Shown in pieces: positions 39,698 through 55,673 of a stretch of 64,000 nucleotides of DNA. Made by a program: the position numbers and the translations under genes. The notes beneath the pieces are model-generated. The model was not told the origin of the DNA. It ran no database searches and saw only the letters and a list, made by a program, of their open reading frames with translations. This DNA is from an uncultured Holophagales bacterium (GTDB lineage Bacteria; Acidobacteriota; Thermoanaerobaculia; Multivoradales; UBA5704), in contig CAWJGT010000009.1 in assembly GCA_963842525.1 (NCBI GenBank), positions 736,001 to 800,000 on the forward strand, read 5' to 3'. Position 1 is the stretch's first letter. Each line of letters opens with the position of its first letter.

Positions 39698-39908
39698 ACG
39701 TCAGATGCTAGCACAAGGCAGTCACGGCCGGCCCCCGAATAGGTCCGAATAAACGTTTGGCTCCTCCGCTGGCACCAAACAACTCGCCTGGTCTCCCACC
39801 TTCAAAGAAGGCGGGGCCTTCGGCCCATTGTCTTGATGATGCCGGCGGGACGCCGGCGCTCCCAGGGGTACACGCCGACACCTTTGTGTTCGTTTGAACC
39901 CTGGCACC

Positions 39909-40427: not shown

Positions 40428-40742
40428 GGCACGCCTCCTTGAGCCCAGCGGCAGGAAGAGAGCTCGTGGCGGGCCTAACTGTATCAGCTCACCGGGCCTG
40501 GCGACGAGGAGGAGGCGAGACGCCGTTGGGAGGGGCTTCGGGACGATTCTGAAGCCCTCCAGAAGTTTTTCCAGGGCTTCGGATCGGCCCTCAAGCCTTC
40601 CGGGAAAGATCCGGACGGCTGAAAAAATTTCTGGAAGACAACTCCCTTGGCATCACCGGGCGGAATCTCCGGGGACACCCCGGCCGGCCGTGTCCATCCC
40701 GAGCATAGCGAAGATCTGGGGATGGGGAAGCTCCGAGCCCCG

Positions 40743-40862
40743 CCCAGCCGCCGTAGAGCTCGTCGTTGGCCCCCTCCCGCAGTTGGTCGTGGGTTGACGG
40801 TCAGCCGGCAGGAGTCTTCGATCCGCTCGATCTCCCAGGTGACTCTCGAGGTCCTCTCGAGG
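40743..40862 (-). pseudogene. Internal fragment of an SRPBCC/AHSA1 gene
   Basis: TSRVTWEIERIEDSCRLTV / HDQLR / ANDELYGGW across frames; no start or end. Confidence 0.6.
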
Positions 40863-40908
40863 TCCACTCGCTCTTGACGCGCACGCGCCGTTTGGTCACG
40901 ACGAGGCC

Positions 40909-42744
40909 TCAGCCGGCCGAAACGCGCGCCTGCGCGGCCGGTCTGCGGCGGTCCACGTGCTCGCGGCGCGCGGCGGCGGCTTCCCGGCAACGTCTCCAGC
41001 CATCGACCAGGTCGCGCACGCTCAGCGATTCGGCCATGATCGGGTGCGGCGTCTCCCACTCTTGCATGTTCACCGGTGTCAGGTTGAGGTGGGCGTTCAT
41101 CGCCTGCGGCGACCACAGGGCCCGCACGTTGGCGCCGCCGGTCGTCCACAAGCAGGGGTCGGCGACCGTATAGACGATCAGGGTCTGGCGGCCGAGAGCG
41201 GAGGAGAGGTGGGCCAGGCCGGTGTCGGTCGAGACGACGGTGGCGGCGGTGGAGAGGATGGCGACCATGCCGGGCAGGTCTTCGTGGATCGGCTCGATAC
41301 GCGCGCGTACGTCGTCCGGCAGCCGCGCGATCTCAGGGGCGAAGGAACCCTCCCGATTCGTGTCGCAACTGAAAACGATCCGTTGCGCTTGGCGGGATTC
41401 CCGCTCCGCCGCGGCGCACTCGCGGGCGATCTCGCAGAGGAAGCGCGAGAGCAGGTCCGGAGCGAAAGCCTTGCTGCTCTTCGAGGCCGACTCGATCACG
41501 CAGTGGTAGACCGTGCCGTCGAGCTTGTAGCGGTGGAGCAGCAGCTCGCGGCGGCGCTCGACCGCTGTGCCCAGGGGAAGGCTCATGCAGACCTCGGCGG
41601 GGCGGTCGGTGAGCTTGCAGCCGAGGAGGATCTCGATCAAGCGGTGCAGCTTGGCGGGATAGGAGGTGATATGGCGGCGCGGCGGAACGACCGACTGCCA
41701 GGGCACGATGTCGCGCGAATAGCGGTCGATCAGGAGGTCGACGACCGCGAGCGCCCGTCCGCGGTCTTGCGCCGCTGCCAGAAGCTCCGTCGACACCGCC
41801 GGTGCGGAGCTGACGAGGACGACCGTCCGTTCGTTGTGCCGGCGCAGGTCCTCCGCATAGACCGCGGCCTCCGCCGGGTCCCGCGGCCCGCAGAGGCTGC
41901 GCACGGTGGCGAACGGGTGGCGTTCGGCGATCCCCGCCAGGACCGCCGCGTAAGGGCTGATGATGGTCACCGGACGACGCAGGTGCGGGTGCAGGTCGAA
42001 AAGCTTGCCAAGAGCATCGATGGCGCTCATGCCGAGCAGCGCGTCGCCGAGGGCGTGCGAGGTATAGAACAGGATGCGCTCCGCCTCCACGAACGCCGGC
42101 CGCAGCGAGGCCGCCGCGTCCACGTCGTCGCCGACGCCGGCACAGTCCATCATCAGATTGGCACGGTCGAGGAAGGCCTGGGTGAGCTCGCCGTGCGCCA
42201 GCGCAGGCCGGCGGCCACGGCGGACATCGAGGGCGGCGCACACGGCGCCGAGCTCGATCCGGCCGCGCGGCGAAAGCGTGCCGTGGGTCAGCATGCGGCG
42301 CGCGCGCAAGGCGTCTCCCAGGTCGTCGCCGCCGAGGAAAAGGCGAGCCTCGTGGTTCGACCCGTCGAGCGACAGCGCCTCCTCGAAGAGGGAGCGCGCC
42401 TTCTCGTAGTCGCCGAAGCGCGCCGTCACCTGGCCCAGGAACGACAAGGTCCAGGTGTCGCCGGGGCGTTCCTCGTGCAGGCGCTCGAGCAGGTCCCGGG
42501 ACTCATCCGGCCGGCCGCGCCAGAAGAGGATGCGGGCCAATTCCAGACGGGCGACGTGGGCGTCGTCTTCCGCGAGCCCGGGGAGCCGGGCGGCGAGCAG
42601 GCGCTCGGCACCCGCCAGATCGCCGTTGTTGACCAGCTCGTCCTGCGCCCGGCTCAGCAGAATCGACCCTGCCCGTCCGCGTTGGCGGGCGAACGCTTCG
42701 GCACGCTGCCAGGCGTCGTCGCGCACCACGTTTCCCGCGCTCAC
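40909..42744 (-). CDS. TPR + GT9 (heptosyltransferase-like) glycosyltransferase
   Basis: N-terminal TPRs; HALGDALL, VVSTDTGLAHLSSALG...VY. Confidence 0.8.
   Translation of the reverse strand: MSAGNVVRDDAWQRAEAFARQRGRAGSILLSRAQDELVNNGDLAGAERLLAARLPGLAEDDAHVARLELARILFWRGRPDESRDLLERLHEERPGDTWTLSFLGQVTARFGDYEKARSLFEEALSLDGSNHEARLFLGGDDLGDALRARRMLTHGTLSPRGRIELGAVCAALDVRRGRRPALAHGELTQAFLDRANLMMDCAGVGDDVDAAASLRPAFVEAERILFYTSHALGDALLGMSAIDALGKLFDLHPHLRRPVTIISPYAAVLAGIAERHPFATVRSLCGPRDPAEAAVYAEDLRRHNERTVVLVSSAPAVSTELLAAAQDRGRALAVVDLLIDRYSRDIVPWQSVVPPRRHITSYPAKLHRLIEILLGCKLTDRPAEVCMSLPLGTAVERRRELLLHRYKLDGTVYHCVIESASKSSKAFAPDLLSRFLCEIARECAAAERESRQAQRIVFSCDTNREGSFAPEIARLPDDVRARIEPIHEDLPGMVAILSTAATVVSTDTGLAHLSSALGRQTLIVYTVADPCLWTTGGANVRALWSPQAMNAHLNLTPVNMQEWETPHPIMAESLSVRDLVDGWRRCREAAAARREHVDRRRPAAQARVSAG
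42697..42743. repeat. 47-bp direct repeat, copy A (start of the TPR-GT9 gene)
   Basis: 44/47 identical to 44549-44595. Confidence 0.9.
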
Positions 42745-42751
42745 GTTGGTC

Positions 42752-44497
42752 TCATCGGCTGAGCCCTGATTCTGAGCTCTGGCAGTCCTGACGCCAGACG
42801 GCGGGCAGGCGCTGGAGGATCTCTTCCTTCGACAAGCGACGGGGCTTCACCGCCTGGAGCATCAGCTCGCGCTGCATCAACTGATCGCCGACCAGGATGC
42901 CGTTGGCGTAGAATGTCGCTTCCCCGGCGGCCGCCTCCTCCTCGGTTCCGACGCGCAGGTTGTGCACCGGCACCGCCTTCGGGCTCGGCTGGCGGCCGAC
43001 TTCGACGAGAGCCGCCTCTCCGCTCTCTGTGAGCACGACATCGCCCTGCTTGAGCTGGCTTGCCATGACCGGCCCCCGGGAGGTGACCACCGGGTGCGCC
43101 TCGGTCAGCAGCAAGGTGTGCCCCCGGTCGTCACGGATGCGCACCAGGGGGTGTTCCTCGGAGCCCCAGGTCTTCCCTGTGACCGCGCGCACGTCCGCCT
43201 TGCCCTGTGACCGCACTTTCTCGTCGCCGTAGGCCTGGAACGTCTCGATGGCCCTCTCCGAGCCATCTGCCATGCGGACTTTCACGCCCGCGGGCAGACA
43301 GCCCTGCAGAACGTCGATCTTCGGCACGATCACCGTGTTCGACGTCGCAACCTTCGGCTTCCTGCTGGTGAACGTCGCGCCGATATGGCCGCCCGCCGTC
43401 TGCAGGAACAGTTGGAAGGTGTAGTCGAACAACATGCCGTTCGGCCTCAGGCAGTCCTTGTTCGGAAAGCTGGCGGGATTGAGATTCCAAGTCACGATAC
43501 CCTTGTCCACCTTGATGGCCGAAAGGTCGGTCGTCGCAGTCAGCATGCATCCGCCGCCGGCTGCGTCGGTCAAGGTGATGTCCAGAGACCCCGTCAGAGG
43601 GCTCGTCGGAGCCTTGGCCGGGGTGAAGTTGCCGGCGATGGGAAAGATGATGTTTGGCGGATTGCCGCTGCCCGTGCACCCATAATCGCAGTCGCTGTTG
43701 ACGCGCGGCCCATAGCAGATCTTGATGTTCCCCCGTGTCGGATCGACGCAGGCCGTGGCGGCGTTGGTGTTGCACTGCTGGGTTCCGCCTCCACCGGCGG
43801 GCTTGTAGTTCGGCGAGAGCTGGCAGGCGGCCCTCACGGGCTTCAAATCTGTAAGCAGGATGACGTAGGGCTCTACAAGGTCGTGCTTCTTCTGTTTGAT
43901 CAGGAAGAGCGCGTTGGCTTCGATGTCGCTCTCCGAAACCGGTCTCCCCGCAACCGCGACCTCCAGGTTCGTTTGCGCGCACAAGCTGCCTTCCTTGGAG
44001 CCGATATTGGTGTTTTCCTCGAGGTCGATGAGGGTCAGGATGATCCTCGTGTAATCAGGGACCTGATCGCTCGGGTAGGTCGAGAAGGCGCTGGTGTAGA
44101 AGTCTCCGTCTTCCAGCTGGCCGAACTCGGTGATGTAGTTCACGCCTTCGAGCGTAAGTCCTGCCTTGACGAGGCGCGGCTTGCCCGTTTTGCCGGTTGT
44201 GCGTGCCTTCTCCAGGAGCTTGAATAGATGGGGAGACCTCTCGGCGGAGACGCCGGCCCGGCGGAGTGTGTCGATCACGAAAGCGTACTGCCGCGGGTCG
44301 GCCAGGTTCAGCTTGTAAGGCAGACCGATCGCAACGTTCTGGCGGAGATAGCGGAGATTGGTGACCTCTTTCGCGGAAAGCTTCGTTCCTGTCGGCGCCC
44401 CTCCAGAGCTTTCGGCGCCGAGCAGGGACGAGGCGAGGAATAGCCCGAGCAGAAACATCAAGACGAACGCCGAGTGAAGGGCTTGAGGTTTTCTCAT
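42752..44497 (-). CDS. Secreted Cys-rich protein with C-terminal Hint domain
   Basis: Signal peptide; G|CLPAGVKVRMADG, LTEAHP, VHNL, FYANGILVGD. Confidence 0.88.
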   Translation of the reverse strand: MRKPQALHSAFVLMFLLGLFLASSLLGAESSGGAPTGTKLSAKEVTNLRYLRQNVAIGLPYKLNLADPRQYAFVIDTLRRAGVSAERSPHLFKLLEKARTTGKTGKPRLVKAGLTLEGVNYITEFGQLEDGDFYTSAFSTYPSDQVPDYTRIILTLIDLEENTNIGSKEGSLCAQTNLEVAVAGRPVSESDIEANALFLIKQKKHDLVEPYVILLTDLKPVRAACQLSPNYKPAGGGGTQQCNTNAATACVDPTRGNIKICYGPRVNSDCDYGCTGSGNPPNIIFPIAGNFTPAKAPTSPLTGSLDITLTDAAGGGCMLTATTDLSAIKVDKGIVTWNLNPASFPNKDCLRPNGMLFDYTFQLFLQTAGGHIGATFTSRKPKVATSNTVIVPKIDVLQGCLPAGVKVRMADGSERAIETFQAYGDEKVRSQGKADVRAVTGKTWGSEEHPLVRIRDDRGHTLLLTEAHPVVTSRGPVMASQLKQGDVVLTESGEAALVEVGRQPSPKAVPVHNLRVGTEEEAAAGEATFYANGILVGDQLMQRELMLQAVKPRRLSKEEILQRLPAVWRQDCQSSESGLSR

Positions 44498-44548
44498 GGC
44501 TCCTCTCCGTGAAATGAAAACCGCAGCTCATCAACCGAGCGGCGGAGG

Positions 44549-44595
44549 TTCGGCACGCTGCCAGGCGTCGTCGCGCACTGCGTTCCCCGCGCTCA
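44549..44595. repeat. 47-bp direct repeat, copy B
   Basis: Matches 42697-42743; overlaps the lectin stop codon. Confidence 0.9.
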
Positions 44596-44982
44596 AGCCG
44601 CGACGGTGATCCTCACCGTGAGCGATCCCTCGTTATCGGTGAAGCCGGCGCCGTAGATGCCGTTCATGTCGTCGTTGATGCTGAGGTGGAGAGGTCCGAT
44701 CAGGCCGTCCGGCACGAAGCCGATGGGGCCGACGGGGAACACCACGGGCGAGCCTCCTGCGACGACGACCTGGCCCACGAGCAGCCCTTCGACCTGCCCC
44801 TCCAGGTTGTATCCCTCCTTGGCGATGAGCCCAGCGTGGCCGTCCGGACCGACCAGGCCGTTGGCCGGGTTGGCGCTCCACTCGCCGTTCGCTGCGATCC
44901 TCACCGTAGCGGTTCCGTCCAACGTCAGCCCGGTGTCCATCCAGAGAGTGGTGGCGTCGACTGTCACGTTGAAGTCTGGCAT
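44593..44982 (-). CDS. LecA/PA-IL-like lectin
   Basis: WMDTG, IAANGEW, GLLVGQV, INDD...FTDNEGSLTV (cf. PA-IL NDVPGTYGNNSGSFSV). Confidence 0.75.
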   Translation of the reverse strand: MPDFNVTVDATTLWMDTGLTLDGTATVRIAANGEWSANPANGLVGPDGHAGLIAKEGYNLEGQVEGLLVGQVVVAGGSPVVFPVGPIGFVPDGLIGPLHLSINDDMNGIYGAGFTDNEGSLTVRITVAA

Positions 44983-45015
44983 GGCTCGAACCTTCCTTTC
45001 TCGCGATGTGCCGCT

Positions 45016-47277
45016 CTATTGTCTTCGTCCCGGCGGCGGCGAGCGCCGGAGAGGATCCAGGCCGCTCTTGAGCTGCGTGCCGGTTAGAGCCCTCCGGGCG
45101 ACCGGCGCCTGCTGAGCGACTGACGACACGGCCAGCGCAAAAGGCTGCCTCGAGCCCGGCGCAAGCGTGGCCGCCGTGACGGTGATCGTACATGCGCCCG
45201 CGGGCGTCTGCGCCAGGATCAGCTTTTCGAACGAATTCGCCGTGTCGGCAGGCCCATTGGCGGCCGTCTGGCCGTTCTGCATGCTGGGCACTCCTCCGTG
45301 GTAGACGGTGGTTCCGTCCGCCAGCGTCAGCGTGAGGTCGAGGTCGTTGACCAGCGCTCCCGCCAAACCGGCGTCCGGCGGGTCGTACCAGGTCAGTGTG
45401 ATTGCCAACTGCGTGGCGGCCGAGAACGTCAAGTTGGGGAAGACCACCGACTGTCCCTGTTGGGTGAACACGAAGGCTGCGCCGGGCTCGGTCAGAGAGT
45501 CGAAATACATGATCTGACCGGCGCCGAAACCATCGATCGACTGCCGCAGGTTGATTTCGCCCCAGCCCTGCATGTTGTCGGGCACGTAGTTGTAAAGCGG
45601 CGAAGTGCCGTTGACGAGCAGGGCCTTGACCAGCATCCCCGTCGCGTTGGGCAGGTTCGTCTGGGTGGCGAGGAACTCGCGGAGCAGCACCGCCGAGCCG
45701 GACACCAGCGGCGTCGAGAAGGACGTTCCGGAGGCATAGGCAAAGCCGGGCTGGTTCAGGTACGGCTGGTTGGACGGGCCCGCCCCGGTCGCCGGACAGG
45801 TCGCCGCCATGGACTGGGGACAGCGCATCGCGACCATGGCTCCGGGAGCGCAGACGTCCGGCTTGAGGCGGCCGCCCACCACCGGACCCTGCGAGCTGCT
45901 GTTGGCCATCGCGTTGATCGCCGTGGCCGTGGGATAGGTGAAGGGAGGCCCGGCCGCGCCCGTCGGAGGGGTGCCGTTGCCCGCATTGCCGACCACGAGC
46001 GAATCCTTGGAGCAGCTCAGGGTGCCGATCGAGCCGGCTCCCTGGGCGCCGTAGTTGCCGGCGGAGGTCACTACCAGCATGGTCGGGTTCGTCCCGACGA
46101 ACGTGTCGATGGCGGAGGACCCTTGCAGCGAGTACGTGTTGAGCACAGGAGCGAGAACGGGAAAGGTGCCGGTGGCGGGCACCCAACTGTTGTTGTGCAC
46201 CCGCGCATTCGCGGCGAAGGCGTTGGTCAGAGCGCGATCGATGTTCAGATAGCCTGGTTGCAGCCCGTTCGAATCGGCGTTGAAGGGCCGCATGATGGCG
46301 GTCGCCATAAAGGCTACACCGGTGAGGAGTCCGCCGGCAGAGGTCGCGCCGTTGCCCACGGCCACGTCGGTGACGAAGGTGCCGTGCGACGAGGGGTCGC
46401 CCTTATAGTTGAGGCCGGCCCAGCTTTGCGGGATGGTCGGGGCAGGATTGGTCCAGTTTGCGATGTCGCCGTTGACGCGCCCCTGGAAGTCCGCGAGAAG
46501 GGTTGCGGGATTCCCGGTGTCGAGCCCGGTGTCGTAAATGCCGAGCACCTGGCCGGTTCCGTCGAGGTTGTCGATGTTCGCCCAGGGCGGCGCGGCATTT
46601 GCGCGCACGCCGATCCTCACCGGCGCGATGTCGAGCTCTGGTTGCGGGGTCATGGCCGGCTCGACGTTCCATACGTCCGGCAGCGCCGCGAGCCCGGCCA
46701 GCGCCCTGGTTGGGACCGACACCACCAGCGCTTCCTTGCCGAGGGCGGTCGAGACGACGCGCGCGCTGCCGCCGAGCTTCACGATCTCCTCGGCGGTCGC
46801 CGCCGCTTTTTCAAACACGGTCACGACGACGTCCACCTTGCTCGTCGCGTCCGGGTTCTCGGCGCTCGCCCGCAGCGATGGATCGATCTTGTAGCCCGGA
46901 TGGAAGGCGTCGGCGAAGCGCACGCCCCGGAGCGCCCGGAGCTTCGCCAGGCTCAAATCGCCGACGAGAAGCCCGTGCCGGGCGATGGGGCCATGAATGC
47001 GTCCGCCGGCAGCCCGGATGGCGTCGTAGACCGCGCGTCCTTTCCCGGTCTCGTACTGGACGATCGCAACTCCCGGGTCGCCCTTGGCCAGCAGAGCCGG
47101 CGCCAGCTTCGGCGGCGCAGAGAGCGGATCGAAGGCGAAGTCACGCACGTAGAGCTTCGCGGCATTCGCGGCATCGGGTGAGGGCGGAGGCGGCGCGATC
47201 TGCGCGGCGAGAGCCCAGACCGGCAGGATCCATAGAGCGACGAGCGCGAAGAAGCGGCGTCGAGCGGACGATCTCAT
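45016..47277 (-). CDS. Secreted S8 subtilisin-family protease (KP-43-like)
   Basis: Signal peptide and prodomain; IYDTG, SHGT, SAGN, GTSFSTP; C-terminal LVNDLDL. Confidence 0.92.
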   Translation of the reverse strand: MRSSARRRFFALVALWILPVWALAAQIAPPPPSPDAANAAKLYVRDFAFDPLSAPPKLAPALLAKGDPGVAIVQYETGKGRAVYDAIRAAGGRIHGPIARHGLLVGDLSLAKLRALRGVRFADAFHPGYKIDPSLRASAENPDATSKVDVVVTVFEKAAATAEEIVKLGGSARVVSTALGKEALVVSVPTRALAGLAALPDVWNVEPAMTPQPELDIAPVRIGVRANAAPPWANIDNLDGTGQVLGIYDTGLDTGNPATLLADFQGRVNGDIANWTNPAPTIPQSWAGLNYKGDPSSHGTFVTDVAVGNGATSAGGLLTGVAFMATAIMRPFNADSNGLQPGYLNIDRALTNAFAANARVHNNSWVPATGTFPVLAPVLNTYSLQGSSAIDTFVGTNPTMLVVTSAGNYGAQGAGSIGTLSCSKDSLVVGNAGNGTPPTGAAGPPFTYPTATAINAMANSSSQGPVVGGRLKPDVCAPGAMVAMRCPQSMAATCPATGAGPSNQPYLNQPGFAYASGTSFSTPLVSGSAVLLREFLATQTNLPNATGMLVKALLVNGTSPLYNYVPDNMQGWGEINLRQSIDGFGAGQIMYFDSLTEPGAAFVFTQQGQSVVFPNLTFSAATQLAITLTWYDPPDAGLAGALVNDLDLTLTLADGTTVYHGGVPSMQNGQTAANGPADTANSFEKLILAQTPAGACTITVTAATLAPGSRQPFALAVSSVAQQAPVARRALTGTQLKSGLDPLRRSPPPGRRQ

Positions 47278-47377
47278 CGGCTGAGCCCTCCAGCGAAGAA
47301 GAGGACATGATACTATCAGACTTGCACGAAGCCTGTCGAAGCTTAGATTCATTGCTCTGTAAGCATTGGAGATTCGG

Positions 47378-48901
47378 GTGAACCCGGAGGAGATCGCACG
47401 CTACCAGGGCCTGGCGCGCGAGGTGATCGCGAATCCTCCGCCCTATCCGAAGGAGCGCTATACCGGACGCGGCGTGGTGGTCTGCGGCGGCGGCGCCAGG
47501 TACTTCACCTGTGCCTACGTCTGTCTCAGCATGCTGCGCCAGACCGGCTGCCGGCTACCGGTCGAGCTGTGGCATCTCGGCCCGCTGGAGATGAACGACG
47601 ACATGCGCGCGCTGGTCGCGCCGCTCGACGTCACCTGCGTGGACGCGAGCGAAATGCGCAAGGAGCAGCCGGTCCTGCGGCTCCATGGCTGGGAGCTCAA
47701 GCCGTACTCGATCCTCCATTCACGGTTCGAGGAGGTGCTGTTTCTCGACGCGGACAACGTGCCTCTGGTGAACCCGGAGGTCTTCTTCACGTGTGCGGAG
47801 TACGAGCGCACCGGGGCGCTCTTCTGGCCGGATTTCAGCCCGCTCGACAGGAAGAACCCGATCTGGGAGCTGGCGGAGGTGGAGTACCGCTATGAGCCGT
47901 CCTTCGAAAGCGGCCAGCTCGTCGTCGACAAGCGGCGCTGCTGGGCGGAGCTGCAGCTCACGATGCACTACAACGAGCACTCGGACTGCTATTACCGGCA
48001 CACGGGGGGAGACAAGGACACGTTCCACATCGCGTGGCGGCGGCTGGGCCGGCCCTATGCGATGATCCCGCATCACGTTCAGGCGCGCGGCGGCGTGGTG
48101 ATGTGCCAGCACGATTTCACCGGTGAGGTGGTCTTCCAGCACCGCAACAATGCGAAATGGACGCTCGATCTCGACGCCAATCCGCGGGTGGCAGGGTTCC
48201 GCCACGAAGGGCGCTGTCTCGAGATCCTGCGCGAGCTCGCCGCGCGCTGGAACGGCGATCCGGCCCGGCTGCGTCCGGATTCGCCACAAGCGCGCCGGCT
48301 GCACGACGAAATCGAAGCGACGGAGAAGTACGTCTATGACCGGGTCGGCCACGACCGCCGGGTGATCCGCCTGCACACCGACCAGAGCATCTCCGGTGCG
48401 GGCAGCCTGGAGACGTCCTGGTTCGTGATGACCCGCGAAGACGGCGAGCCCGTCCTGTGCATTGCCGGCTCGCAGGGGATCACCTGCCTCCTTGCGCCGC
48501 GCGGCGACGGGGCCCTGACCGGCCGCTGGGAGCTCTTCGAGCGCATGCCGATCGACCTCCTTCCTCTGTCTCTGGTCCCGGCGGAGGATCTGCTGCAGAT
48601 CGAGCGCGACGCCCGCCACACGGCCCTGTGCGGGCTGGCGGCCCTGGTGGTCCACGTGCGGCGCGAGCGGAGGCTGGTCCGCTTCGAGCCGGGCGGAGGC
48701 CTTTCGAGCCAGGACGGCTCCCCGGACGGCTGGCGCTGGGGCCTTCGCTGCCGAGCCGGCGAGCTGGCGCTCGAGCTCACCGAGGCGGACGGCAGCCGGC
48801 GCCTCCTGTTCGAGGAGCCCGACGGCGTCTTCCGCGGTGAGGCGTGCTCCGGGCGCGACCGGGTGGAAGTCATTCCGCTGCCGGGACTGAAGCTCCCTTG
48901 A
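47378..48901 (+). CDS. GT71/Mnn2-like glycosyltransferase with two C-terminal repeat domains
   Basis: RGVVVCGG, LPVELWH, LKPYSILHSRFEEVLFLDADN, LFWPD, ESGQLVVDK, GDKDTF. Confidence 0.85.
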   Translation: MNPEEIARYQGLAREVIANPPPYPKERYTGRGVVVCGGGARYFTCAYVCLSMLRQTGCRLPVELWHLGPLEMNDDMRALVAPLDVTCVDASEMRKEQPVLRLHGWELKPYSILHSRFEEVLFLDADNVPLVNPEVFFTCAEYERTGALFWPDFSPLDRKNPIWELAEVEYRYEPSFESGQLVVDKRRCWAELQLTMHYNEHSDCYYRHTGGDKDTFHIAWRRLGRPYAMIPHHVQARGGVVMCQHDFTGEVVFQHRNNAKWTLDLDANPRVAGFRHEGRCLEILRELAARWNGDPARLRPDSPQARRLHDEIEATEKYVYDRVGHDRRVIRLHTDQSISGAGSLETSWFVMTREDGEPVLCIAGSQGITCLLAPRGDGALTGRWELFERMPIDLLPLSLVPAEDLLQIERDARHTALCGLAALVVHVRRERRLVRFEPGGGLSSQDGSPDGWRWGLRCRAGELALELTEADGSRRLLFEEPDGVFRGEACSGRDRVEVIPLPGLKLP

Positions 48902-48947
48902 GCTCCTTCTCCAGTGCTTCGACCGCGAGATCGCGCCGCTTCTGGGG

Positions 48948-51455
48948 ATGCGCAGGCCGACATTCCGGCGGCTGTTCGAGCTTCTGGAGGGACGGCGACA
49001 GGACTCCTACACCATCGTCGAGACCGGCGTCGCCCACCTCGCCGCTGCCGACGGAAGGCCCGGCTTCCACGCGGTCCACGGCCAGAGCACGCTCCTGTTC
49101 GACCAGTTCGTCAACGCTCGGGGAGGTGCGGTCTACAGCGTCGACTGCTCGCCCGTGCACTGCCGGCGGGCGCGGAGCTGGGTGAGCGACAGAGTCCGTA
49201 TCTTCTGTCACGACAGCCACACGTTTCTGGCCGGCTTCAGCGCGCCGACGCCCATCGACTGCCTCTATCTCGATTCGCTGGCCGTCGATTGGAGCGATCC
49301 GCATCCGAGCGCGCTGCATCATCTTGAAGAGCTGTGCGCCATTCTGCCGCGCCTGCCGGAGGGTTGCATCGTCGTCGTCGACGACACGCTACGCGGCATC
49401 GGAAAGGGCGGCTACATCGTCGAGGTGATGGAGCGCATCGGCGCCCGGCTCCTCTTCGAGGGCTATCAGGTGGCATGGCAGCTCACGGGTCCTCCGCCGG
49501 CGATCCGGCCCTGGGGGTGCTACGCGCCCGACGAGCTGGCGTTCGTGCTGGCTCGCCCGGCCGCCCTCTCGTACCGCTACGTGCGCGTGGGCTCCGACGA
49601 GCGCATCCTGGAGCTTCTGCCCGACGGCACGATCGGCCATGGGAAGGGGGAGCTGGAAGAGCGGTGGTTCGCCGAGCGCGCTGCCGGCGGAGGCGTCGGG
49701 CTGGTTCTCGCGGGCAGCGGGCGGATCACGGCGCGCCTCTCCCCCGTGCCACCGGAGGACCGTTGGCGCGGGCACTGGCTGGTCCACGATCGCGAGGCGG
49801 TCGAGCTGTGGCCGCTGCCGCCGGACGACGGAGTCATGCCGTCCGGCCGTTACTGGCTGCGCGCGGCCGAGGGCGGGGCACGCCCGCTCGGGTTGCTCGC
49901 TTCGCACGACGTCTGGAACCGTGGCGCCGGAGCCGAGACGTGGCGCATCGAACGCGGCGAGGACGGGCAACCGGTCCTCCTGCTTGCGGCGGCGGGCCGC
50001 GACCGATGGCGTTTCCATCCGGACCGCGAAGGGTGCTGGCAGGGGAGCTCGACCGCCGATCCGCCTGTCGCGGCATCGCTCGAGCTCCTCGGCCAGACCA
50101 GCGACAGCGAGGCCTCCGCGCGCACCGCTCTCGCCGCGCGCCGCCTGTTCCGATATCGCCGGGAAGGCGATGGCGAGTGGCCGATCGAGCTGGTGCCGGA
50201 CGGGACGATCGGCCGGGGCGCCACGCCGACCGAGGCCGCCTGGGACGTCGAGGACACCGGAGACGGCGAGCTCGCGCTCCTCCTCTACGGGCGCGACTCG
50301 ATGGCCGTGCGGCTGGCACAGCAGCCGGACGGCTCGTTCCTGGGCAAGTGGCCGCTGCACGACCGGCGGACGGTAAGGGTCGAGCCGCTCGACCGCGGCT
50401 CGGGCGCCTATCTCCTGCCGATCTTCACCGCGTGCCTGCCGCGCCGGCAGATCCGCCGCATCGTCGAGGTGGGAGGCGGCGACGGAGTCGACGCCGTCGC
50501 GCTGCAGCGCTATTTCGACGCCGACGTCATGGTCTTCGAGTGCAATCCCGACCTGCTCTCTGCCTGTGCCAAGCGTGCCGCTGCGTGTCCCCGCGTCACC
50601 CTGGTCGCCAAGGCCGCCGGCGAGGCCGAAGGGATGATCCCTTTCTATCGCGTGACCAACGGGAATCCGCACGCGTCCTCGTGCTTCGTCGCCAATCCCG
50701 CCTATCCCTACGAGGTCTACGTACAGGAACGCTGCGAGGTGGAGATGATCCGGCTCGACGGCTTCCTGGACGCGCAGGGGCCGGAGACGCCGGAGACCAT
50801 CGGCCTCCTGGCGATCGATGTCCAGGGAGGCTGCCTGGGCGTGCTCCGCGGCCTCGGAGCGCATCTCGACCGCGTGCGCTACGTCATCGCCGAGATCGGC
50901 ACCCGTCCCCTGTACGAAGGAGAGGCGCTGGCGCCCGAGGTCATCGCGTTCCTCGCCGGCCGCGGCTTCCATCTCCTGCGCTGGTTCGACCAGTGGGGAG
51001 TCCTGCCCGACGGAGATCTCGTCGACCCCACCGTCTTCCCGCGGCAGTACGCCGGGGCCGAAAGCTGGTTCGGCGACTACCTCTTCGTGCGCAACACACC
51101 GCGCGAAGCGGCGGCCGCGGCCGCCATCACCGCGCACCGGTTCTTCCGCTACGTGCGCCTGGGCCATGACGAACGGACGCTCGAGCTGCTGGCCGGCGGG
51201 CAGATCGGAGAGGGGCGCGGCGGGTGCGAGCGGAACTGGATCGTGGAGGAGCAGCCCGACGGCGCTGTCGAGCTGCTGCTGCTCGGTCTCGAGCAGGTGA
51301 CCTGCCGCCTCCTGCACGGCCCCGACGGCCGCTGGCGGGGGCGGTGGACGTCCCACGAACGGATGCCCGTCTTCCTGGAGCCGCTCCCGGCGGAGTCTCA
51401 GGCAGGATCCCAGGGAGCCTGCGAGGAGCCGAGCAGGGTTTCGCTGGAGGTGTAG
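48948..51455 (+). CDS. Multidomain protein: class I methyltransferase + repeat domains + FkbM-like methyltransferase (start may be ~48898)
   Basis: IVETG...YSVD...LYLDS...VVDD..GKG; VEVGGGDG...FECNP...IDVQG...IAE. Confidence 0.82.
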   Translation: MRRPTFRRLFELLEGRRQDSYTIVETGVAHLAAADGRPGFHAVHGQSTLLFDQFVNARGGAVYSVDCSPVHCRRARSWVSDRVRIFCHDSHTFLAGFSAPTPIDCLYLDSLAVDWSDPHPSALHHLEELCAILPRLPEGCIVVVDDTLRGIGKGGYIVEVMERIGARLLFEGYQVAWQLTGPPPAIRPWGCYAPDELAFVLARPAALSYRYVRVGSDERILELLPDGTIGHGKGELEERWFAERAAGGGVGLVLAGSGRITARLSPVPPEDRWRGHWLVHDREAVELWPLPPDDGVMPSGRYWLRAAEGGARPLGLLASHDVWNRGAGAETWRIERGEDGQPVLLLAAAGRDRWRFHPDREGCWQGSSTADPPVAASLELLGQTSDSEASARTALAARRLFRYRREGDGEWPIELVPDGTIGRGATPTEAAWDVEDTGDGELALLLYGRDSMAVRLAQQPDGSFLGKWPLHDRRTVRVEPLDRGSGAYLLPIFTACLPRRQIRRIVEVGGGDGVDAVALQRYFDADVMVFECNPDLLSACAKRAAACPRVTLVAKAAGEAEGMIPFYRVTNGNPHASSCFVANPAYPYEVYVQERCEVEMIRLDGFLDAQGPETPETIGLLAIDVQGGCLGVLRGLGAHLDRVRYVIAEIGTRPLYEGEALAPEVIAFLAGRGFHLLRWFDQWGVLPDGDLVDPTVFPRQYAGAESWFGDYLFVRNTPREAAAAAAITAHRFFRYVRLGHDERTLELLAGGQIGEGRGGCERNWIVEEQPDGAVELLLLGLEQVTCRLLHGPDGRWRGRWTSHERMPVFLEPLPAESQAGSQGACEEPSRVSLEV

Positions 51456-52420
51456 CTCCGCTGGAGCGGATCGGGCGGATGTCCGCCGCAGCCATACAGG
51501 GCCGGCCGGTAGATCCGGGAAAGGTCGCCGGCCAGGGGCGCGAGGTCGCGCAGGCGCGCGACGTCCTCCTGGCGCACGAAGAAGGCGTTGACGCCGGCGT
51601 TCTCTGCATAGACCAGGACGTACCCCAGCCTCGCGCCGAGACGCTGGAGAGCGAGCTGGCTGGCGCCAAAGTAGCGCGTCCCGTCCCAGGATTTGTCCGG
51701 TCCCTCGTACGGGACCACGAGGTCCTCGCCGGGACCGTGTGCGCCGTTGTGCTCGACGATCACCACGCGGGGAGAGAGCAGCTCGCCGATCCGCCACCAG
51801 AATCGTAGTAGTCGACGTCGATGCTGAGCACGTCGAGCTGCCTGGGGACCTGGTAGCGCTCGACCAACGCGGGGATGTTGTCGAGCGTGACCAACTCGCG
51901 GTAGAGGCCGCGGGACGGATTGTGAAAGCCCAGGTCCCATTGCAGCACCGTGGCTCCCGCCTCGGCCAACACGCGGGTGTTGCACTCGCTGCCGTCTCCG
52001 ACGCCGAACTCCAGCGCGACCGGCCCGCGCACGCCGAGCTCCTGGAGCAGCGCCAGGAGAACGCCATCCTCGCCGTTCTGCGAACGCAGGCGAGCCTCGG
52101 CGCCGTACAGCGGGCTCTCCTTGTACCAGCTCAGACCGTTGTCCCAGTCGATGCGGTGCGTGCCCGCGAGCCGGGCCTCAGGATGGTCCGGACCGAAGAA
52201 GACGCGGAAGCGCACGGGCGCCTCGATCCATTCGAACCGCAGCCTCGGCAAGCGCAACCGCGGGTCTCCGTCACCGGCGATCCGGATGCGCCAGCCGGGG
52301 TAATACCATGTCCCCAGGAGGTCGGCGGGCGGATCAGATCCGGGAACGACGATCAGCTCCTCGATCAAGCTGAATCCCCAGTGCTGCGGCCGGAAGCAGA
52401 AGAACGGCGGCGGATCAATC
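51398..52420 (-). CDS. FkbM-like methyltransferase (frameshift ~51800; start approximate)
   Basis: SQNGEDG, LEFGVGDGSECNT, LSIDVD; PRVVIVEHN, YFGAS, GVNAFFVR. Confidence 0.8.
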
Positions 52421-54511
52421 CTGGCCGGTGCGGAGCCACCAGTAAGAGCCCTGGCTCGGCTTGCGCCGGACGTTGGTGGCACAATGGATTTCGCCGTGAT
52501 CCATGTGGTATGCCCAAGTGTCGACGCTGGTCCCTGTAAAGCCGTAGCGCCCCAACACGCTGAGAGTGTAGGCTTCAAAGACGTCCGCATTCGCCTCGAC
52601 CGTGAAAGGTTCCGTGATGGGTATCTGAATCGGGCCCGGCGTGACGGGCCCGTAGGGTTTGGGGAAAAGACAGCGATTGGAAAGCACGAGCATGTTGACG
52701 ATATCGGCGGTCAAGGCTTCGAGCTTCATCATCGCTTGAAAGAACAGGACGGGGACCTCCTCGATCACGACTTGCGATTCCGGAAACTCGTCACGAATGC
52801 GCTGGATCACTCCCAAAAGCTTTGCCTGTGCAGATTTAGAGTCGAACTCTCCCTCTCCTTGCTGTGTGCTCGTGAGCACGGACTCATACCTCGCTCTGGG
52901 GTCCTCCGACTCCTCGAGCTCGAAATCCACTCCGAGGTTGATGAAATCCGCCCCGGGGGCTATCGGAGCCGCCAAGAAATCCACGAGCGACTGCCCGGCC
53001 TGGCGCGTTCCGTCGGCCAGTTTTATCTCCCGGTCAGTGAGAATCGTCGCGCCGGGGTGCTGGAGCAAAGTTTCGTAGATCAGGCGATAGGCGAGCCGCG
53101 GGCTCGGGACCAGCGCCAGGGCGCGGCGGTCGGGCAGCGGCAGGAAGCACACGACTTCGTCCGCGTGCCCGACTCGGAGCCAGGAGGCATCCAACGAAAA
53201 TGGCCGCTGAACCCTCTGCGCCCTGAGGAAATCTTTGAGATCCTCACGCGAGGGCTCGGAAAAATAGACTCTGCCGAGGATGTCGTCGCCGAGGGGCGGA
53301 GTAACCTCCAGATTCCCGAAGGCGAGGGTTGTGTTGGTGTTTGGCACTTGTTCGCCAACCTGGAACACGCTCATACCAAGCTTTTCTTCGGTCACGCGCC
53401 CCTGCCATCTTTCGACGGGCGAGCGGAGCGCGACCATCACTGCGCGTTCCGCGGTGGCGCGCGTATGGCCGATTTCGAAGCCGTCCTGCATGAATAGCCT
53501 TTCGGCCGCAGACTCGGTAGTGATCTGCTCACGCTGAAGCCCGCACTCTTGAAGGGCCTCCACGGTCGTTGTATACCGGTGCTGTTCATTAGGCGGAGAA
53601 GGCCCTCCTCCCGGGGAGAGCTTCAGCGCCACGTAACCGTGCTCCACCTCTTCTCCGTGATGCATCATGACCCAGGGCGCGATCCGCAAGCGGGCGTACT
53701 GCGGCTCGCCGGCGATCCCGTTGATGAGCGGTGTGAAGGTCACGACCACGCATGGGTCCGCCGCCAGGTCGCGCAGGTACTGGGTTGCTTCCGCGAAGAA
53801 CCGCACGACACCGTCGCCCTCGGCGGGGAATGCGAACTGGTGGACCCCTCGATCCAGAACGATGGCGCCGCCTTCGGCCGTAAAAAACCGAACTCTCTCG
53901 GGAGCGCTGACCGCGATGATGCCCTCTACCATGGGACGCGGTGATGCGCCGAGCACTGACTCCGTCAGTCGAAATTCGAAAGGCGCCCAAGCTTCGCGAT
54001 TCGGTTCAGGGTTCTCGTTCGCAATCAGGATCGCACCGCGCCCCTCGGGCCCGAAGGTCCACTGGTCGATCCCTTCGGAAACCAGCACGCCGTTGCGTGC
54101 GGCGTCCACGAACATGCGTGCGGCCGGCGCCGGCGGCGCCTTGAGTACAACGACGATCTCGACCTCCAGAGAGCCTTGGTTGTCCGCCAAGCCATCCCCG
54201 TGCTGCGCGTTGAGGTCGTCGTTGATTCCCAAAAACAACTGTCCGCGACCCATCGCGGAAACGTTCGCGCCCCGCCCCCCCACCCAGAAAACGGCTTCGC
54301 CGATCTTCCCCACCAAGCCGCCTTCCGGTTGGCCCGGAACCGCATAGCCGTCCGTGGCGGTGTGCTTGGAATCCCCTTCCGGGCCGTATCGGCCCGAGTC
54401 CGGATTGCACGTCCACTCTCCGCCCTTGCAGAGGACGTACACGTCGTGACCCTCGTCAACGACGACTCCCGTCGCCGTCCAACGAACGTTGGCAAGCACC
54501 TGGACTTTCAT
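52415..54511 (-). CDS. LecA-like lectin fused to protein-arginine deiminase (PAD)
   Basis: N-terminal WTATG...INDD...DNQGSLEV; WTFGPEGRGAIL, RIAPW, MQDGFEIG, FGNLEVTPP, WLRVGHADE, VNMLVL, GEIHCATNVRRKP. Confidence 0.9.
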   Translation of the reverse strand: MKVQVLANVRWTATGVVVDEGHDVYVLCKGGEWTCNPDSGRYGPEGDSKHTATDGYAVPGQPEGGLVGKIGEAVFWVGGRGANVSAMGRGQLFLGINDDLNAQHGDGLADNQGSLEVEIVVVLKAPPAPAARMFVDAARNGVLVSEGIDQWTFGPEGRGAILIANENPEPNREAWAPFEFRLTESVLGASPRPMVEGIIAVSAPERVRFFTAEGGAIVLDRGVHQFAFPAEGDGVVRFFAEATQYLRDLAADPCVVVTFTPLINGIAGEPQYARLRIAPWVMMHHGEEVEHGYVALKLSPGGGPSPPNEQHRYTTTVEALQECGLQREQITTESAAERLFMQDGFEIGHTRATAERAVMVALRSPVERWQGRVTEEKLGMSVFQVGEQVPNTNTTLAFGNLEVTPPLGDDILGRVYFSEPSREDLKDFLRAQRVQRPFSLDASWLRVGHADEVVCFLPLPDRRALALVPSPRLAYRLIYETLLQHPGATILTDREIKLADGTRQAGQSLVDFLAAPIAPGADFINLGVDFELEESEDPRARYESVLTSTQQGEGEFDSKSAQAKLLGVIQRIRDEFPESQVVIEEVPVLFFQAMMKLEALTADIVNMLVLSNRCLFPKPYGPVTPGPIQIPITEPFTVEANADVFEAYTLSVLGRYGFTGTSVDTWAYHMDHGEIHCATNVRRKPSQGSYWWLRTGQD

Positions 54512-54713
54512 GGAAGCCCTCCCGCAGGAGCCCGGGTAACGCAGATCAGCAAGAGGCGGCGAGCGCACGGGCGAATCGGCGCCGACGCGCGCACGCGCCG
54601 CCAGCCCATCTCGGCTACATCTGGAATCTTCTAAAGATTACCGCAGAGCTGACTTCTTGTCCAGCGGCTCCCGCCTCGTGCGCCTCGTGAAGCGCGCTCC
54701 GGGAGCCGGGGGC

Positions 54714-55673
54714 CTACTCGGGCTCCCCCTCCCGGTCCAGCAGGAAGCTGACGGGGACGAACTCGTACCCGTCGGCTTTGGCCTTGGGCACCTCTTCCTG
54801 GAGGGCGGCCAGGGTTTCGGGATGGGGGTGGCCGATGGCCACGGCGGCGCCGCGGGTCCTGGCGAGGGTTAGGAGGCGCTGGAACTGCTCGCGGATCGCC
54901 TCCGGCTGCGGGTCGCGATCGAGGAAGACCTTGCGCTCGGCGGCGGGGATGCCCATGGACAGGGCCGTCCGGTAGGCGACGCTGTCGGCGCTGGTGCGCG
55001 AGTCGAGGAAGAAGAGGCCGCGCCCGGCGAGGACCTGCAGGATGGCATGCATGGACGGCGCGTCGGCCGACAGCCCGGAGCCCATGTGGTTGTTCACCCC
55101 CACGGCCCCGGGGACCGCCTGGAGGGCCGCGGTCGTGCCGTCGCGGAGCTCCTCGGGGGTCATGCCGAGCCGCAGCGCACCGGGACCCGGATCCTCGCCG
55201 TTCTTGGGCTCCATGGGCAGGTGCAGGAGGATCTCTTTGCCCTGTTTGCGCAGCTCCGAGACGACCGCGGGGGTCTGGTCTGCGTATGGCAGGACGGCAT
55301 AGGTGATCGGGACGCCGAGGTCCTGCAGGGGACGGAGCTCGTCCACATTGTCCCCCAGGTCGTCGATCACCAGGGCGATCCGGCCCGGCCGGTCTCCTCC
55401 CCCGGTCGATACCGTGGTGCCGGAAGGGACCTCGTCGTCGGGCGCGTCGGTGGGGATGGAGGGCACAGCGGCCCGTACGGCCGTCTCCTCCCCGCGTGCG
55501 GGCGCGGCAGGGGATGCCGCGGAGGGTTTCTCACTCCCTTGCCCGGCAGGCGGAGACGGCGTCCTGTCCTGGAAGACGAGCCAGAGGGTTCCGGCACCGA
55601 TCACGATGCCGAACAGGAAGAGCCAGAAGCTCCCGAGGCCGGAGCGCTGGGAGCGGACGCGTCGGCGGGCCAT
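54714..55673 (-). CDS. Divergent polysaccharide deacetylase (YibQ-like)
   Basis: IALVIDDLG, LLHLPMEP, NNHMGS, FLDSRT, AIGHP. Confidence 0.92.
   Translation of the reverse strand: MARRRVRSQRSGLGSFWLFLFGIVIGAGTLWLVFQDRTPSPPAGQGSEKPSAASPAAPARGEETAVRAAVPSIPTDAPDDEVPSGTTVSTGGGDRPGRIALVIDDLGDNVDELRPLQDLGVPITYAVLPYADQTPAVVSELRKQGKEILLHLPMEPKNGEDPGPGALRLGMTPEELRDGTTAALQAVPGAVGVNNHMGSGLSADAPSMHAILQVLAGRGLFFLDSRTSADSVAYRTALSMGIPAAERKVFLDRDPQPEAIREQFQRLLTLARTRGAAVAIGHPHPETLAALQEEVPKAKADGYEFVPVSFLLDREGEPE

Follow-up and report, generated by a model that had tools for sequence, protein, structure and literature searches.

The eight-gene island

A stretch of 64,000 nucleotides (nt) from an uncultured Holophagales bacterium of the Acidobacteriota (GenBank assembly GCA_963842525.1, contig CAWJGT010000009.1, positions 736,001 to 800,000 of the forward strand; hereafter the window) carries an island of genes for glycosyltransferases, methyltransferases, LecA-like lectin domains, a protease, a Hint-like protein, and a peptidylarginine deiminase (PAD)-like enzyme. 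The open reading frame (ORF) list and third-position GC frame analysis, by which shadow ORFs were separated from real genes, give eight coding regions in three strand blocks between positions 40909 and 54511, which bears out the eight contiguous genes in three units that had been proposed from the DNA letters alone (hereafter the sequence-only reading). The overall G+C content of the window is ~68%. The genes and the two copies of a direct repeat among them are listed here; core marks the families that recur together in related loci, and R is a repeat domain.

G1, 40909-42744, minus strand: TPR domain and GT9-like GT-B glycosyltransferase, 611 amino acids (aa); core
Repeat copy A, 42697-42743, minus strand: 47-nt direct repeat, corresponding to G1 codons 1-16
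G2, 42752-44497, minus strand: predicted secreted Cys-rich and Hint/BIL-like protein, 581 aa; most simply read as a later insertion
Repeat copy B, 44549-44595, minus strand: remnant of the G1 5' end, starting at the G3 stop codon
G3, 44593-44982, minus strand: stand-alone PA-IL/LecA-like protein, 129 aa; core
G4, 45016-47277, minus strand: predicted secreted KP-43-type subtilase (S8) with a long N-terminal pro-region
G5, 47366-48901, plus strand: GT71-like GT-A glycosyltransferase and two R copies; core
G6, 48948-51455, plus strand: Methyltransf_24 domain, three R copies, FkbM methyltransferase domain, and one R copy, 835 aa; core
G7, 51398-52368, minus strand: frameshifted ORF, possibly FkbM-like, unconfirmed
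G8, 52415-54511, minus strand: LecA-like domain (54146-54511), PAD_M-like domain, and PAD catalytic domain

A hydrophobicity test found signal-peptide-like N-termini only in G2 and G4. G1, G3, G5, G6, and G8 have no hydrophobic segment fit for a signal peptide or membrane span; one internal hydrophobic stretch in G3 scores 1.79. Pfam searches of all called genes of the window returned no flippase, polymerase, ABC exporter, chain-length regulator, or nucleotide-sugar gene, and the earlier statement that this is not a standard O-antigen or exopolysaccharide locus stands on that result. Because signal peptides, membrane segments, and export genes are missing, the cytoplasm is, to judge from sequence, the most likely place of action for the lectin and the core enzymes. 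The lowest G+C contents in the island are those of G2 (62.9%) and G8 (62.3%), compared with 68.3 +/- 3.1% for the 47 genes outside it. NCBIfam gave no family-level name apart from fkbM_fam.

A core of four gene families recurs in related loci

One genome per species was scanned with an alignment of 41 GT71 relatives, which confirmed 354 of 392 candidate stretches. The best 80 of these 354 GT71-relative loci, with up to 10 kb of flank, were searched with tblastn, phmmer, and a hidden Markov model of the lectin family (E<=0.01). LecA-like genes are present in three of the 80 loci, in five copies, and in none of the other 77. The three LecA-positive loci are the three nearest GT71 relatives and come from two phyla. 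Two of them also have G1-type TPR/GT9 genes, at 44-60% identity (two copies in L003 and one, frameshifted, in L001). Over all 80 loci, an S8 gene was found in one, Methyltransf_24 in five, and a G6-type FkbM domain in one; G2, the PAD domain, and the middle part of G8 were found in none, and G7 had one weak match.

The three loci differ from one another and from the window in gene order, orientation, and flanks. L001, from a deltaproteobacterial metagenome-assembled genome (MAG; GC 71%), encodes GT71-R-R, Methyltransf_24-R, and a convergent frameshifted TPR/GT9 gene preceded by a LecA-like gene. L003, from a Myxococcaceae MAG (GC 74%), encodes GT71-R-R, Methyltransf_24-R, an FkbM-like gene, an R-R-R-FkbM-R gene, and two TPR/GT9 genes, each adjoined by a LecA-like gene. 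L002, a 4.9-kb contig from a MAG labelled Pyrinomonadaceae (GC 56%), encodes an S8 protease, a LecA-like protein, GT71-R, and Methyltransf_24, with identities to the window proteins of 58%, 59%, 50%, and 45%, respectively; the contig ends in the Methyltransf_24 gene, and it holds no TPR/GT9 gene. Homologues of G3 are found at 50-59% identity in all three. G4 shares 57.8% identity over 709 aa with the L002 protease, and in both places the LecA-like gene is the next one.

In a quick maximum-likelihood tree of 80 rows, the GT71 domains of the window and of L001-L003 form one group (SH-aLRT 97), and clustering as tight as that of the four GT71 genes arose in none of 500 label shuffles. The lectin and the TPR-extended GT9 are found with each other, and in this GT71 clade only. 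Two of the G1 homologues have longest contigs of the same lengths (75209 and 22588) as those of close GT71 matches (P0011 and P0020), which suggests two further co-occurrences. The core thus comprises G3, G1, G5, and G6, with the S8 protease G4 as a frequent companion. Four core families stand together in L001 and L003 and three, plus S8, in L002, so the proposition that the components never co-occur elsewhere, which the sequence-only reading had offered as its own refutation, fails for the core. The recurrence of these families together and the supported GT71 group therefore support the transferases and the lectin as one unit. The same comparison speaks against the other proposed members: G2 is absent from the 80 loci and flanked by the 47-nt duplication, and the PAD domain and G7 are represented there by no match and by one weak match, respectively.

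The LecA-like genes of these loci fall into two loose types, one next to S8 or free (G3, L002, and L003 7370-7756) and one directly upstream of TPR/GT9 (L001, L003 9561-10022, and P0126). Both the TPR/GT9 gene and the LecA-like gene are duplicated in L003 (5540-10022). Elsewhere in L001 (4393-6915), another LecA-like domain ends a 488-aa protein encoded directly downstream of a weak trypsin-like peptidase ORF, a second pair of a protease followed by a lectin protein in a related locus, with a protease of another class.

The lectin-like domain is related to PA-IL at the superfamily level

G3 and the N-terminus of G8 (residues 20-140) are homologous, with 40% identity over 126 columns (E 3e-20), confirming the claimed kinship of the two LecA-like domains. 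Neither matches Pfam PA-IL (PF07828) even at E<=10. The PA-IL model is matched at E<=0.1 by 2 of 35 aligned family members (best 0.031), and its cut-off is reached by 2 of the 68 longer members (P0188 and P0221). A profile of the 35 short-form members matches PllA (8.5e-4), PA-IL (3.2e-3), and another PA-I lectin (0.042) in the PDB; PA-IL-type lectins are the top three of its six matches at E<=10, a weak but consistent signal. The label LecA therefore holds as a predicted superfamily likeness to solved PA-IL lectins, and not as membership of the Pfam PA-IL family, since the profile matches those lectins but the family threshold is unmet.

Six residues are invariant in the 35 family sequences (N103, D104, D105, D116, N117, and G119, in the pattern N-D-D...D-N-x-G). 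The N-D-D...D-N part aligns to the ND...DN of PllA, except that four residues are inserted in the calcium-loop motif. For EclA-N, a solved domain of the PA-IL type, PMC11875179 gives Asp114, Asp121, and Asn122 as calcium ligands and describes the domain as having no known ligand.

The family is large and mostly fused. An exhaustive search returned 378 representative clusters at E<=1e-3, and the 150 best representatives divide into 37 stand-alone proteins, 80 with the domain at the C-terminus, 19 at the N-terminus, 8 internal or multi-copy, and 6 without a full-length domain match. Partners in the 68 longer members are S10 carboxypeptidase, phosphatidylserine decarboxylase, GH64, GH72, GH18, CBM25, tyrosinase, adenosine and cytidine deaminases, TIR, LamG, and PAD; the domain, with such varied enzyme fusions, therefore behaves as a targeting or sensing module. 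Fusions to TIR, cytidine deaminase, adenosine deaminase, and phosphatidylserine decarboxylase are seen in P0260, P0250, P0158, and P0134/P0186, respectively. A signal-peptide-like N-terminus was found in 23 of 144 classified members by a crude hydrophobicity test, and since most members lack one, an intracellular sensing role is suggested for part of the family.

Glycosyltransferases, methyltransferases, and the R domain

The N-terminal part of G1 is a TPR domain (TPR_14, 7.6e-12), and residues 455-547 match Glyco_transf_9 (2.1e-9; 37.5 bits, cut-off 22). WaaC/RfaC structures match it at 1.2e-4 over residues 489-545 only, and G1 is accordingly predicted to be GT9-like in its donor-binding (nucleotide-sugar) half only. 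The family is rare, with 12 full-length homologues in a collection of 5.8 billion proteins. The usual donor of GT9 enzymes is ADP-heptose, and that of yeast GT71 enzymes is GDP-mannose. A full-text word search of the open-access literature found no characterised TPR and GT9 enzyme and no study of bacterial PF11051/GT71 proteins.

G5 matches Mannosyl_trans3/GT71 (PF11051) at 3.4e-38 (132 bits, cut-off 22), in two stretches, the best of which covers positions 1-132 of 273. The DxD residues D124 and D126 are invariant in the 41 aligned GT71 sequences. The best PDB match of the G5-family profile is the yeast GT71 enzyme Mnt2 (1e-5), followed by GT8-type enzymes; the Mnt2 match spans profile positions 36-159 only, which is the N-terminal GT-A part. 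Bacterial relatives of G5 number 1117 at E<=1e-3 among 8000 scored candidates.

G6 carries both of the methyltransferase domains that could be confirmed, Methyltransf_24 (3e-8) and FkbM (Methyltransf_21, 3.1e-11; NCBIfam fkbM_fam, 57.7 bits, cut-off 37.7), and has no PDB match. Its domains are divided between two genes in L003, and only Methyltransf_24-R is left of them in L001. The third methyltransferase domain of the sequence-only reading, in G7, was not confirmed. G7 starts from a candidate TTG at 52368 and changes frame at ~51802, both frames having a coding-type GC pattern; it may be a pseudogene, or a sequencing indel may hide a gene that is intact in the organism. G7 has no Pfam match at E<=10 and no PDB match. 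Against an alignment of six FkbM domains, hhalign gave a probability of 40% (E 2.9e-4) over just 33 columns, and phmmer gave a weak match to an FkbM-type ORF of L003 (E 4e-4). The search for R copies gave no support to G7 as a repeat-bearing protein.

The R domain is a repeat of ~90 aa with six copies, two in G5 (48290-48571 and 48611-48898) and four in G6 (49548-49823, 49824-50099, 50124-50399, and 51096-51395), and no copy was found elsewhere in the island or the window. The six copies exist as claimed, but they do not tie three units together: lying only in G5 and G6, they mark one operon. In the 80 loci we found 72 R copies in 52 loci, and GT71 is present on 55 of the 62 R-bearing ORFs; the others include methyltransferases and Stealth enzymes. 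R-bearing Stealth-type enzymes occur at L014 919-2289 and L016 8537-11494, and a Stealth-GT71 fusion exists, so the R domain marks a toolkit wider than GT71 and methyltransferases. Searching the PDB with an R-domain profile gave spurious matches only; homologues in the protein Atlas give weak leads to lipocalin-like beta-barrels (0.80-0.83, where scores under 0.9 are leads only).

GT71 and methyltransferase genes also keep company beyond the clade of the window. In a sample of 16 distant loci, Pfam searches of 79 ORFs near the GT71 gene show GT9 adjacent or fused in four (L022, L025, L038, and L053) and FkbM fused or near in four (L005, L019, L025, and L040). Other neighbours of GT71 are Methyltransf_24 (L053), Stealth (L016), GT62/Anp1 (L040 and L044), GT10, GT2, GT4, and GT8. 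The best 120 GT71 matches include FkbM on four, GT9 on three, and Methyltransf_24 on one, and GT71-Methyltransf_24 and GT9-Methyltransf_24 fusions occur in L041 and L023. Through these fusions and adjacencies, GT71 enzymes, GT9-type enzymes, and methyltransferases make up a glycan toolkit that is widespread and linked by fusion. The GT9 part of one GT71-GT9 fusion (P0043) was tried as a relative of G1 and is not close by BLASTP, so such fusions involve another GT9 subfamily. The GT71 gene of L012 is flanked by a fusion of PfkB kinase and cytidylyltransferase (6623-8092) and by a PNK3P-type phosphatase (11164-11751); from sequence, these look like heptose-activation genes and would fit a GT9-type partner. 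Anp1/GT62-type genes lie beside GT71 in the acidobacterial loci L040 (6629-9691) and L044 (9010-9891), so that two families of the yeast mannan machinery are neighbours in bacteria.

A duplicated gene start flanks the Hint gene

The two copies of the 47-nt direct repeat (42697-42743 and 44549-44595) share 94% identity, 30 nt of which are exact. The exact 30-mer occurs twice in the window, and 0 occurrences are expected from 100 shuffles. Copy A is the start of G1, and copy B begins at the TGA stop of G3, so that the minus strand reads GCT TGA and then continues into G1-like codons. The TTG start of the remnant overlaps that stop, a former 4-nt overlap of G3 and G1; the start of G1 today is GTG. 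This former overlap matches the short distances between the LecA-like stop and the TPR/GT9 start in L001 (12 nt) and L003 (17 nt). From one copy start to the other are 1852 nt, which comprise G2, a leader of its own with a ribosome-binding site, and a few further bases. Because the duplication flanks G2, the simplest reading is that G2 was inserted secondarily into the G3-G1 junction, and the scar is a natural record of an overlapping-gene operon split by an arriving gene.

An exact 18-nt repeat (42750-42767 and 47272-47289, nowhere else in the window) links the end of G2 (12 coding nt, the stop codon, and 2 nt) to the ribosome-binding site and ATG-AGA start of G4. Exact repeats of at least 18 nt arose in 1 of 200 shuffles. 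The repeat may be a trace of an earlier adjacency of G2 and the S8 gene with an ATGA overlap, or of a recombination that moved G2.

The protease, the Hint protein, and the lectin-PAD fusion

G4 is a subtilase by Pfam (Peptidase_S8, 6.8e-29; 101.5 bits, cut-off 21.8) and resembles KP-43 (PDB 1wmd, 6.6e-31, residues 237-717). Its translation holds D-T-G, H-G-T, and G-T-S, which we take to be the Asp, His, and Ser motifs of subtilases. The likely start is the ATG at 47277; the longest ORF extends to 47352, and a promoter-like site (47339-47310) lies inside this long version.

The assignment of G2 as a Hint protein holds for its family profile, which matches a BIL domain (PDB 2lwy, 2.1e-5) and then inteins, and not for the single sequence, whose Pfam matches are sub-threshold (PT-HINT 6e-4 and Vint 2.7e-3; 20.5 bits, cut-off 27.7). 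G2 has 13 homologues. From its N-terminus, a predicted signal peptide is followed by a domain rich in Cys, a Hint block ending in ...FYANGILVGD, and a tail of ~45 aa. G399 and C400, at the start of the Hint domain, are invariant in the 14 aligned family sequences, and no C-terminal His-Asn or C-extein is seen in that alignment; protein splicing is therefore not expected. An intein was ruled out on these grounds, C400 being present but His-Asn missing and the tail being only ~45 aa. As predicted from this architecture, G2 is a secreted, self-cleaving protein of the Hedgehog/BIL style. The cargo domain gives one weak lead, to a "Hint domain-containing" Atlas cluster (TM 0.75).

G8 has a full-strength PAD domain (PF03068, 1e-43; 150.3 bits, cut-off 25) and a borderline PAD_M match just below its threshold (6e-5; 23.2 bits, cut-off 24.8). 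No PAD_N was found; a LecA-like domain stands at the N-terminus instead, so G8 is not a PAD of the three-domain kind known from animals and cyanobacteria. Human PAD4 matches at 2.2e-31 with three active-site motifs aligned (FMQDGFEIGH in G8 and WMQDEMEIGY in PAD4; VGHADEV and VGHVDEF; HGEIHCATNVRRKP and HGEVHCGTNVRRKP), within which presumably lie the catalytic Asp, His, Asp, and Cys residues. P0234 is a full-length homologue of G8 with the same architecture at 46% identity, and on this evidence the lectin-PAD fusion is a family of its own. PADI homologues are recorded in 295 bacterial species (PMC8826395, Table 1), and two-domain homologues from proteobacteria are already among those described there; the word "lectin" is absent from that paper. 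A full-text word search of the open-access literature found no lectin-PAD fusion in the best-ranked papers. The literature agrees with the sequence-only reading that families such as GT71 and PAD are best known from eukaryotes, but with 1117 GT71-like relatives and the PADI homologues of 295 species, bacterial relatives are many.

A probable core cassette with add-ons

We read the island as a functional core cassette with add-ons and not as one eight-part system, with a probability of about 0.55. This reading draws on what the domains are, on the recurrence of the core, on the fusions and splits that link its families, on the insertion scar, and on the former stop/start overlap. The lectin G3 and the TPR-GT9 enzyme G1 probably act as a pair, a part of the reading that we hold with modest assurance.

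The biochemical steps, the compartment, and the binding of lectin by TPR that we propose are predictions from domain content. By analogy with FlmG, the TPR domain of G1 would bind a protein partner, most likely the co-translated lectin G3, as acceptor or as glycan-holding subunit. The GT-B half of G1 would then add the first sugar, G5 would add an alpha-linked hexose, and G6 would O-methylate the glycan, with the R domains holding G5 and G6 on the same acceptor and G3 recognising the product. On this reading G2, the putative secreted, Hedgehog-style self-cleaving protein, was inserted later between G3 and G1. G8 and the broken G7 are then lineage-specific neighbours, and G8 may re-use the lectin module as an aiming or sensing domain for its arginine deiminase. 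A stronger version, in which writer and reader of a glycan form a pair, the lectin is an obligate partner of the TPR-transferase, and the lectin-PAD is aimed at the O-methylated glycan to give glycan-directed citrullination, is speculative and rather improbable.

Several observations weigh against a core cassette so drawn. The related loci are only three and all metagenome-assembled, one being 4.9 kb long and one having a frameshifted G1 homologue; the other 77 of the 80 GT71 loci are without the lectin and the TPR form of GT9, so the wider GT71 and methyltransferase toolkit does not need the lectin. The distant GT71 neighbours (Stealth, GT62/Anp1, GT10, GT2, and heptose-activation genes) look like polysaccharide building, not protein glycosylation. 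The Glyco_transf_9 match of G1 is partial (profile positions 139-231 of 247), and G1 falls far under the NCBIfam equivalog cut-offs for heptosyltransferases (RfaC, 35.5 against 437 bits; heptsyl_trn_I, 35.3 against 185.3). The G3 family lies below the Pfam PA-IL threshold, and its sugar binding is a prediction only. The S8 protease and G2 are predicted to be exported and the rest are not, so one compartment cannot hold all parts. The 18-nt repeat shared by G2 and G4 hints at a history of G2 with the cassette that is longer than a simple late insertion.

The sequence-only reading had joined all eight genes in one write/read system, in which a methylated glycan is made and the lectin domains guide both the protease of the S8 type and the PAD to its bearers. 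Its proposal survives for the transferases and the lectin as a unit and loses the Hint gene, the PAD, and G7 as members; as a system of eight genes we consider it unlikely. That model rests on one lectin module being found both free (G3, beside S8) and fused to the PAD (G8). The S8-then-LecA adjacency kept in L002 and the L001 pair of a weak trypsin-like ORF and the 488-aa LecA-ended protein agree with it, and the module is fused to many enzymes among the 68 longer members, as a targeting module would be. It is opposed by the absence of the PAD and G2 from the 80 loci and the single weak match of G7, by the scar around G2, by the outlying composition of G8 and G2, by the broken state of G7, by a LecA-PAD fusion that exists as its own family (P0234, 46%), and by the predicted export of the S8 protease but not of G3 and G8. 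The export pattern also bears on a kit of secreted or released factors against prey, fungi, or other eukaryotes, comprising the lectin-PAD, the lectin with S8, and G2, with the transferases modifying these factors or masking the producer. The signal peptides of G2 and G4, the likeness of G4 to the general extracellular subtilase KP-43, and a Hint-plus-cargo architecture typical of released proteins point that way, and for some members of the lectin family, cell-wall targets are suggested by their fusion to GH64, GH72, and GH18-type domains. However, G3 and G8 have no signal peptide, as is the case for all but 23 of the 144 family members in the crude test; Pfam of the called genes found no secretion-system genes in the window and no toxin-domain matches in the island, and PADLOC found no defence system: its S8 (IetS) matches are partial and weak, and a single methyltransferase matches. 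Those family members that are fused to TIR, deaminases, and phosphatidylserine decarboxylase appear to be intracellular. For the effector kit aimed at eukaryotes, which had been offered as a second option, there is no direct support, G2 and G4 alone having signal-peptide-like N-termini, and we regard it as very unlikely.

A cytoplasmic pathway for a polymethylated oligo- or polysaccharide, resembling that for methylmannose polysaccharide (MMP), is possible, if doubtful. Here the acceptor would be free or lipid-linked, the lectin would bind or store the product, and the R domains would bind the chain. Soluble enzymes with no export genes agree with such a pathway, as do methyltransferases fused or adjacent to GT71 in many phyla, R domains that occur on Stealth enzymes too, the heptose-activation-like genes beside GT71 in L012, and the GT62, GT10, GT2, and GT4 neighbours in other loci. 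There is a precedent in which a soluble mannosyltransferase, methyltransferases, and a hydrolase share one cluster, as described in PMC9883506. The lipocalin-like leads for the R domain would suit chain binding, although Atlas scores under 0.9 count as leads only. A protein partner is indicated instead by the TPR domain of G1 and by the close coupling of this gene to that of a small protein, and no MmpH-like hydrolase or primer-recycling enzyme is present. To chance accretion of eight unrelated accessory genes at a hotspot between housekeeping genes we give hardly any credence. The flanks are indeed housekeeping (sucCD on one side; yibQ-like, ctpA-like, and M23 genes on the other), a resolvase and an integrase lie ~10 kb upstream, two components are compositional outliers, and one gene is clearly a secondary insertion. 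For the core, however, chance is already contradicted: its families co-occur in L001 and L003 (four) and L002 (three and S8) in shuffled order and with different flanks, the GT71 genes of these loci are one supported group, domains are fused between families, and the lectin and TPR-GT9 genes once overlapped at stop and start. Nor are the three loci near-identical to the window, with identities of 50-60%.

The core cassette with add-ons offers a testable context for bacterial GT71: a compact, exporter-free set with methyltransferases, a shared R domain, and a dedicated lectin. If the pairing of lectin and TPR-transferase is true, a lectin would here be encoded, unusually, beside the enzymes that make its ligand or carry it. 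The fusion of lectin and PAD would provide a handle on the targets of two-domain bacterial PADs.

Flanking genes and other features of the window

Upstream, the island is flanked by sucCD (34620-36827), a split AAA_14/DUF4143 ATPase gene, an acyltransferase, and an SRPBCC protein. The ATPase gene (36868-38050, minus strand) changes frame near 37680 and is the second frameshifted gene in the 64 kb. The downstream flank, from 54714, encodes a YibQ-type deacetylase, a ctpA-like PDZ protease, an M23 peptidase, and a prolyl oligopeptidase. The resolvase (28158-28754) and the phage-type integrase (29309-30262) upstream lie among unannotated small ORFs. Further away is a respiratory cluster (9753-24496) with NapC/NirT-type and cytochrome c552 (nrfHA-like) genes, several multihaem cytochromes, and an MtrB/PioB-type outer-membrane porin, and at 13865-16210 a P-type ATPase is fused to a hemerythrin domain.

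A scan of the whole window found no tRNA, and Rfam gave no match at E<=0.1 over 38000-56500. Terminator-like sites are not in excess (8 in the sequence and 7.7 in shuffles). Plasmid and phage collections held no match to G3 or G5, and for the PAD five distant matches only, at 27-28% identity.

Comparison with known systems

The enzyme families, bacterial PADs, BIL/Hint proteins, and PA-IL lectins are already known; the cluster composition with a dedicated lectin is undescribed as far as word searches of the open-access literature show. Among the add-ons, G2 resembles Hedgehog/Hog and BIL proteins in its order of a cargo domain, a Hint domain from an invariant Cys, and a short tail, and differs from them in that the cargo is a Cys-rich domain with no Pfam match. 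Unlike pretoxin-HINT proteins, it has no toxin domain after the Hint block. G8 shares the PAD_C motifs and a weak PAD_M with the two-domain bacterial and fungal PADIs described in PMC8826395, and differs from the animal PADIs of that account by a PA-IL-like domain in the place of PAD_N. It is also PAD-like in the manner of the citrulassin PAD of Streptomyces, as far as described in bioRxiv 10.1101/2020.07.16.207027, although no genes for ribosomally synthesised and post-translationally modified peptides are seen near G8.

Within the core, G5 shares with yeast GT71 enzymes (Mnn1 and Mnt2, as presented in PMC13756512) the GT-A fold, the DxD motif, and the PF11051 match. The GT71-specific C-terminal acceptor domain described there is undetected in G5, and the bacterial proteins bear R domains and are soluble, not bound to the Golgi membrane. 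The mycobacterial MMP cluster (as described in PMC9883506), likened here by gene content alone, combines a soluble glycosyltransferase and O-methyltransferases, a methylated glycan, and no flippase or polymerase. The island has GT71/GT9 and FkbM/Methyltransf_24 enzymes in their place, adds the lectin and the TPR domain, and lacks an MmpH-like hydrolase.

The lectin-like domain agrees with PA-IL (LecA) of Pseudomonas aeruginosa, PllA of Photorhabdus, and EclA-N of Enterobacter in its length of ~120 aa and in top PDB ranks. The calcium-binding Asp...Asp-Asn positions of EclA-N, as given in PMC11875179, line up with the invariant N-D-D...D-N of the G3 family, and G3, like LecA, is a short protein without a signal peptide. 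In contrast to PA-IL, the G3 family lies below the Pfam threshold, has the 4-residue insertion in the calcium loop, is mostly an enzyme-fused module, and is linked here to glycosyltransferases.

An architectural parallel for the proposed pairing comes from FlmG of Caulobacter crescentus, a cytoplasmic GT-B protein O-glycosyltransferase whose N-terminal TPR domain binds its protein acceptor, flagellin, according to PMC7591256. Pfam of the window genes shows no flagellar or nonulosonic-acid genes near G1; its glycosyltransferase half is GT9-like, and its neighbour is a lectin-like protein, not flagellin. Likened by architecture alone, G1 and FlmG are both soluble proteins of ~600 aa, cytoplasmic by prediction in the case of G1, with a TPR domain at the N-terminus and a GT-B glycosyltransferase at the C-terminus.

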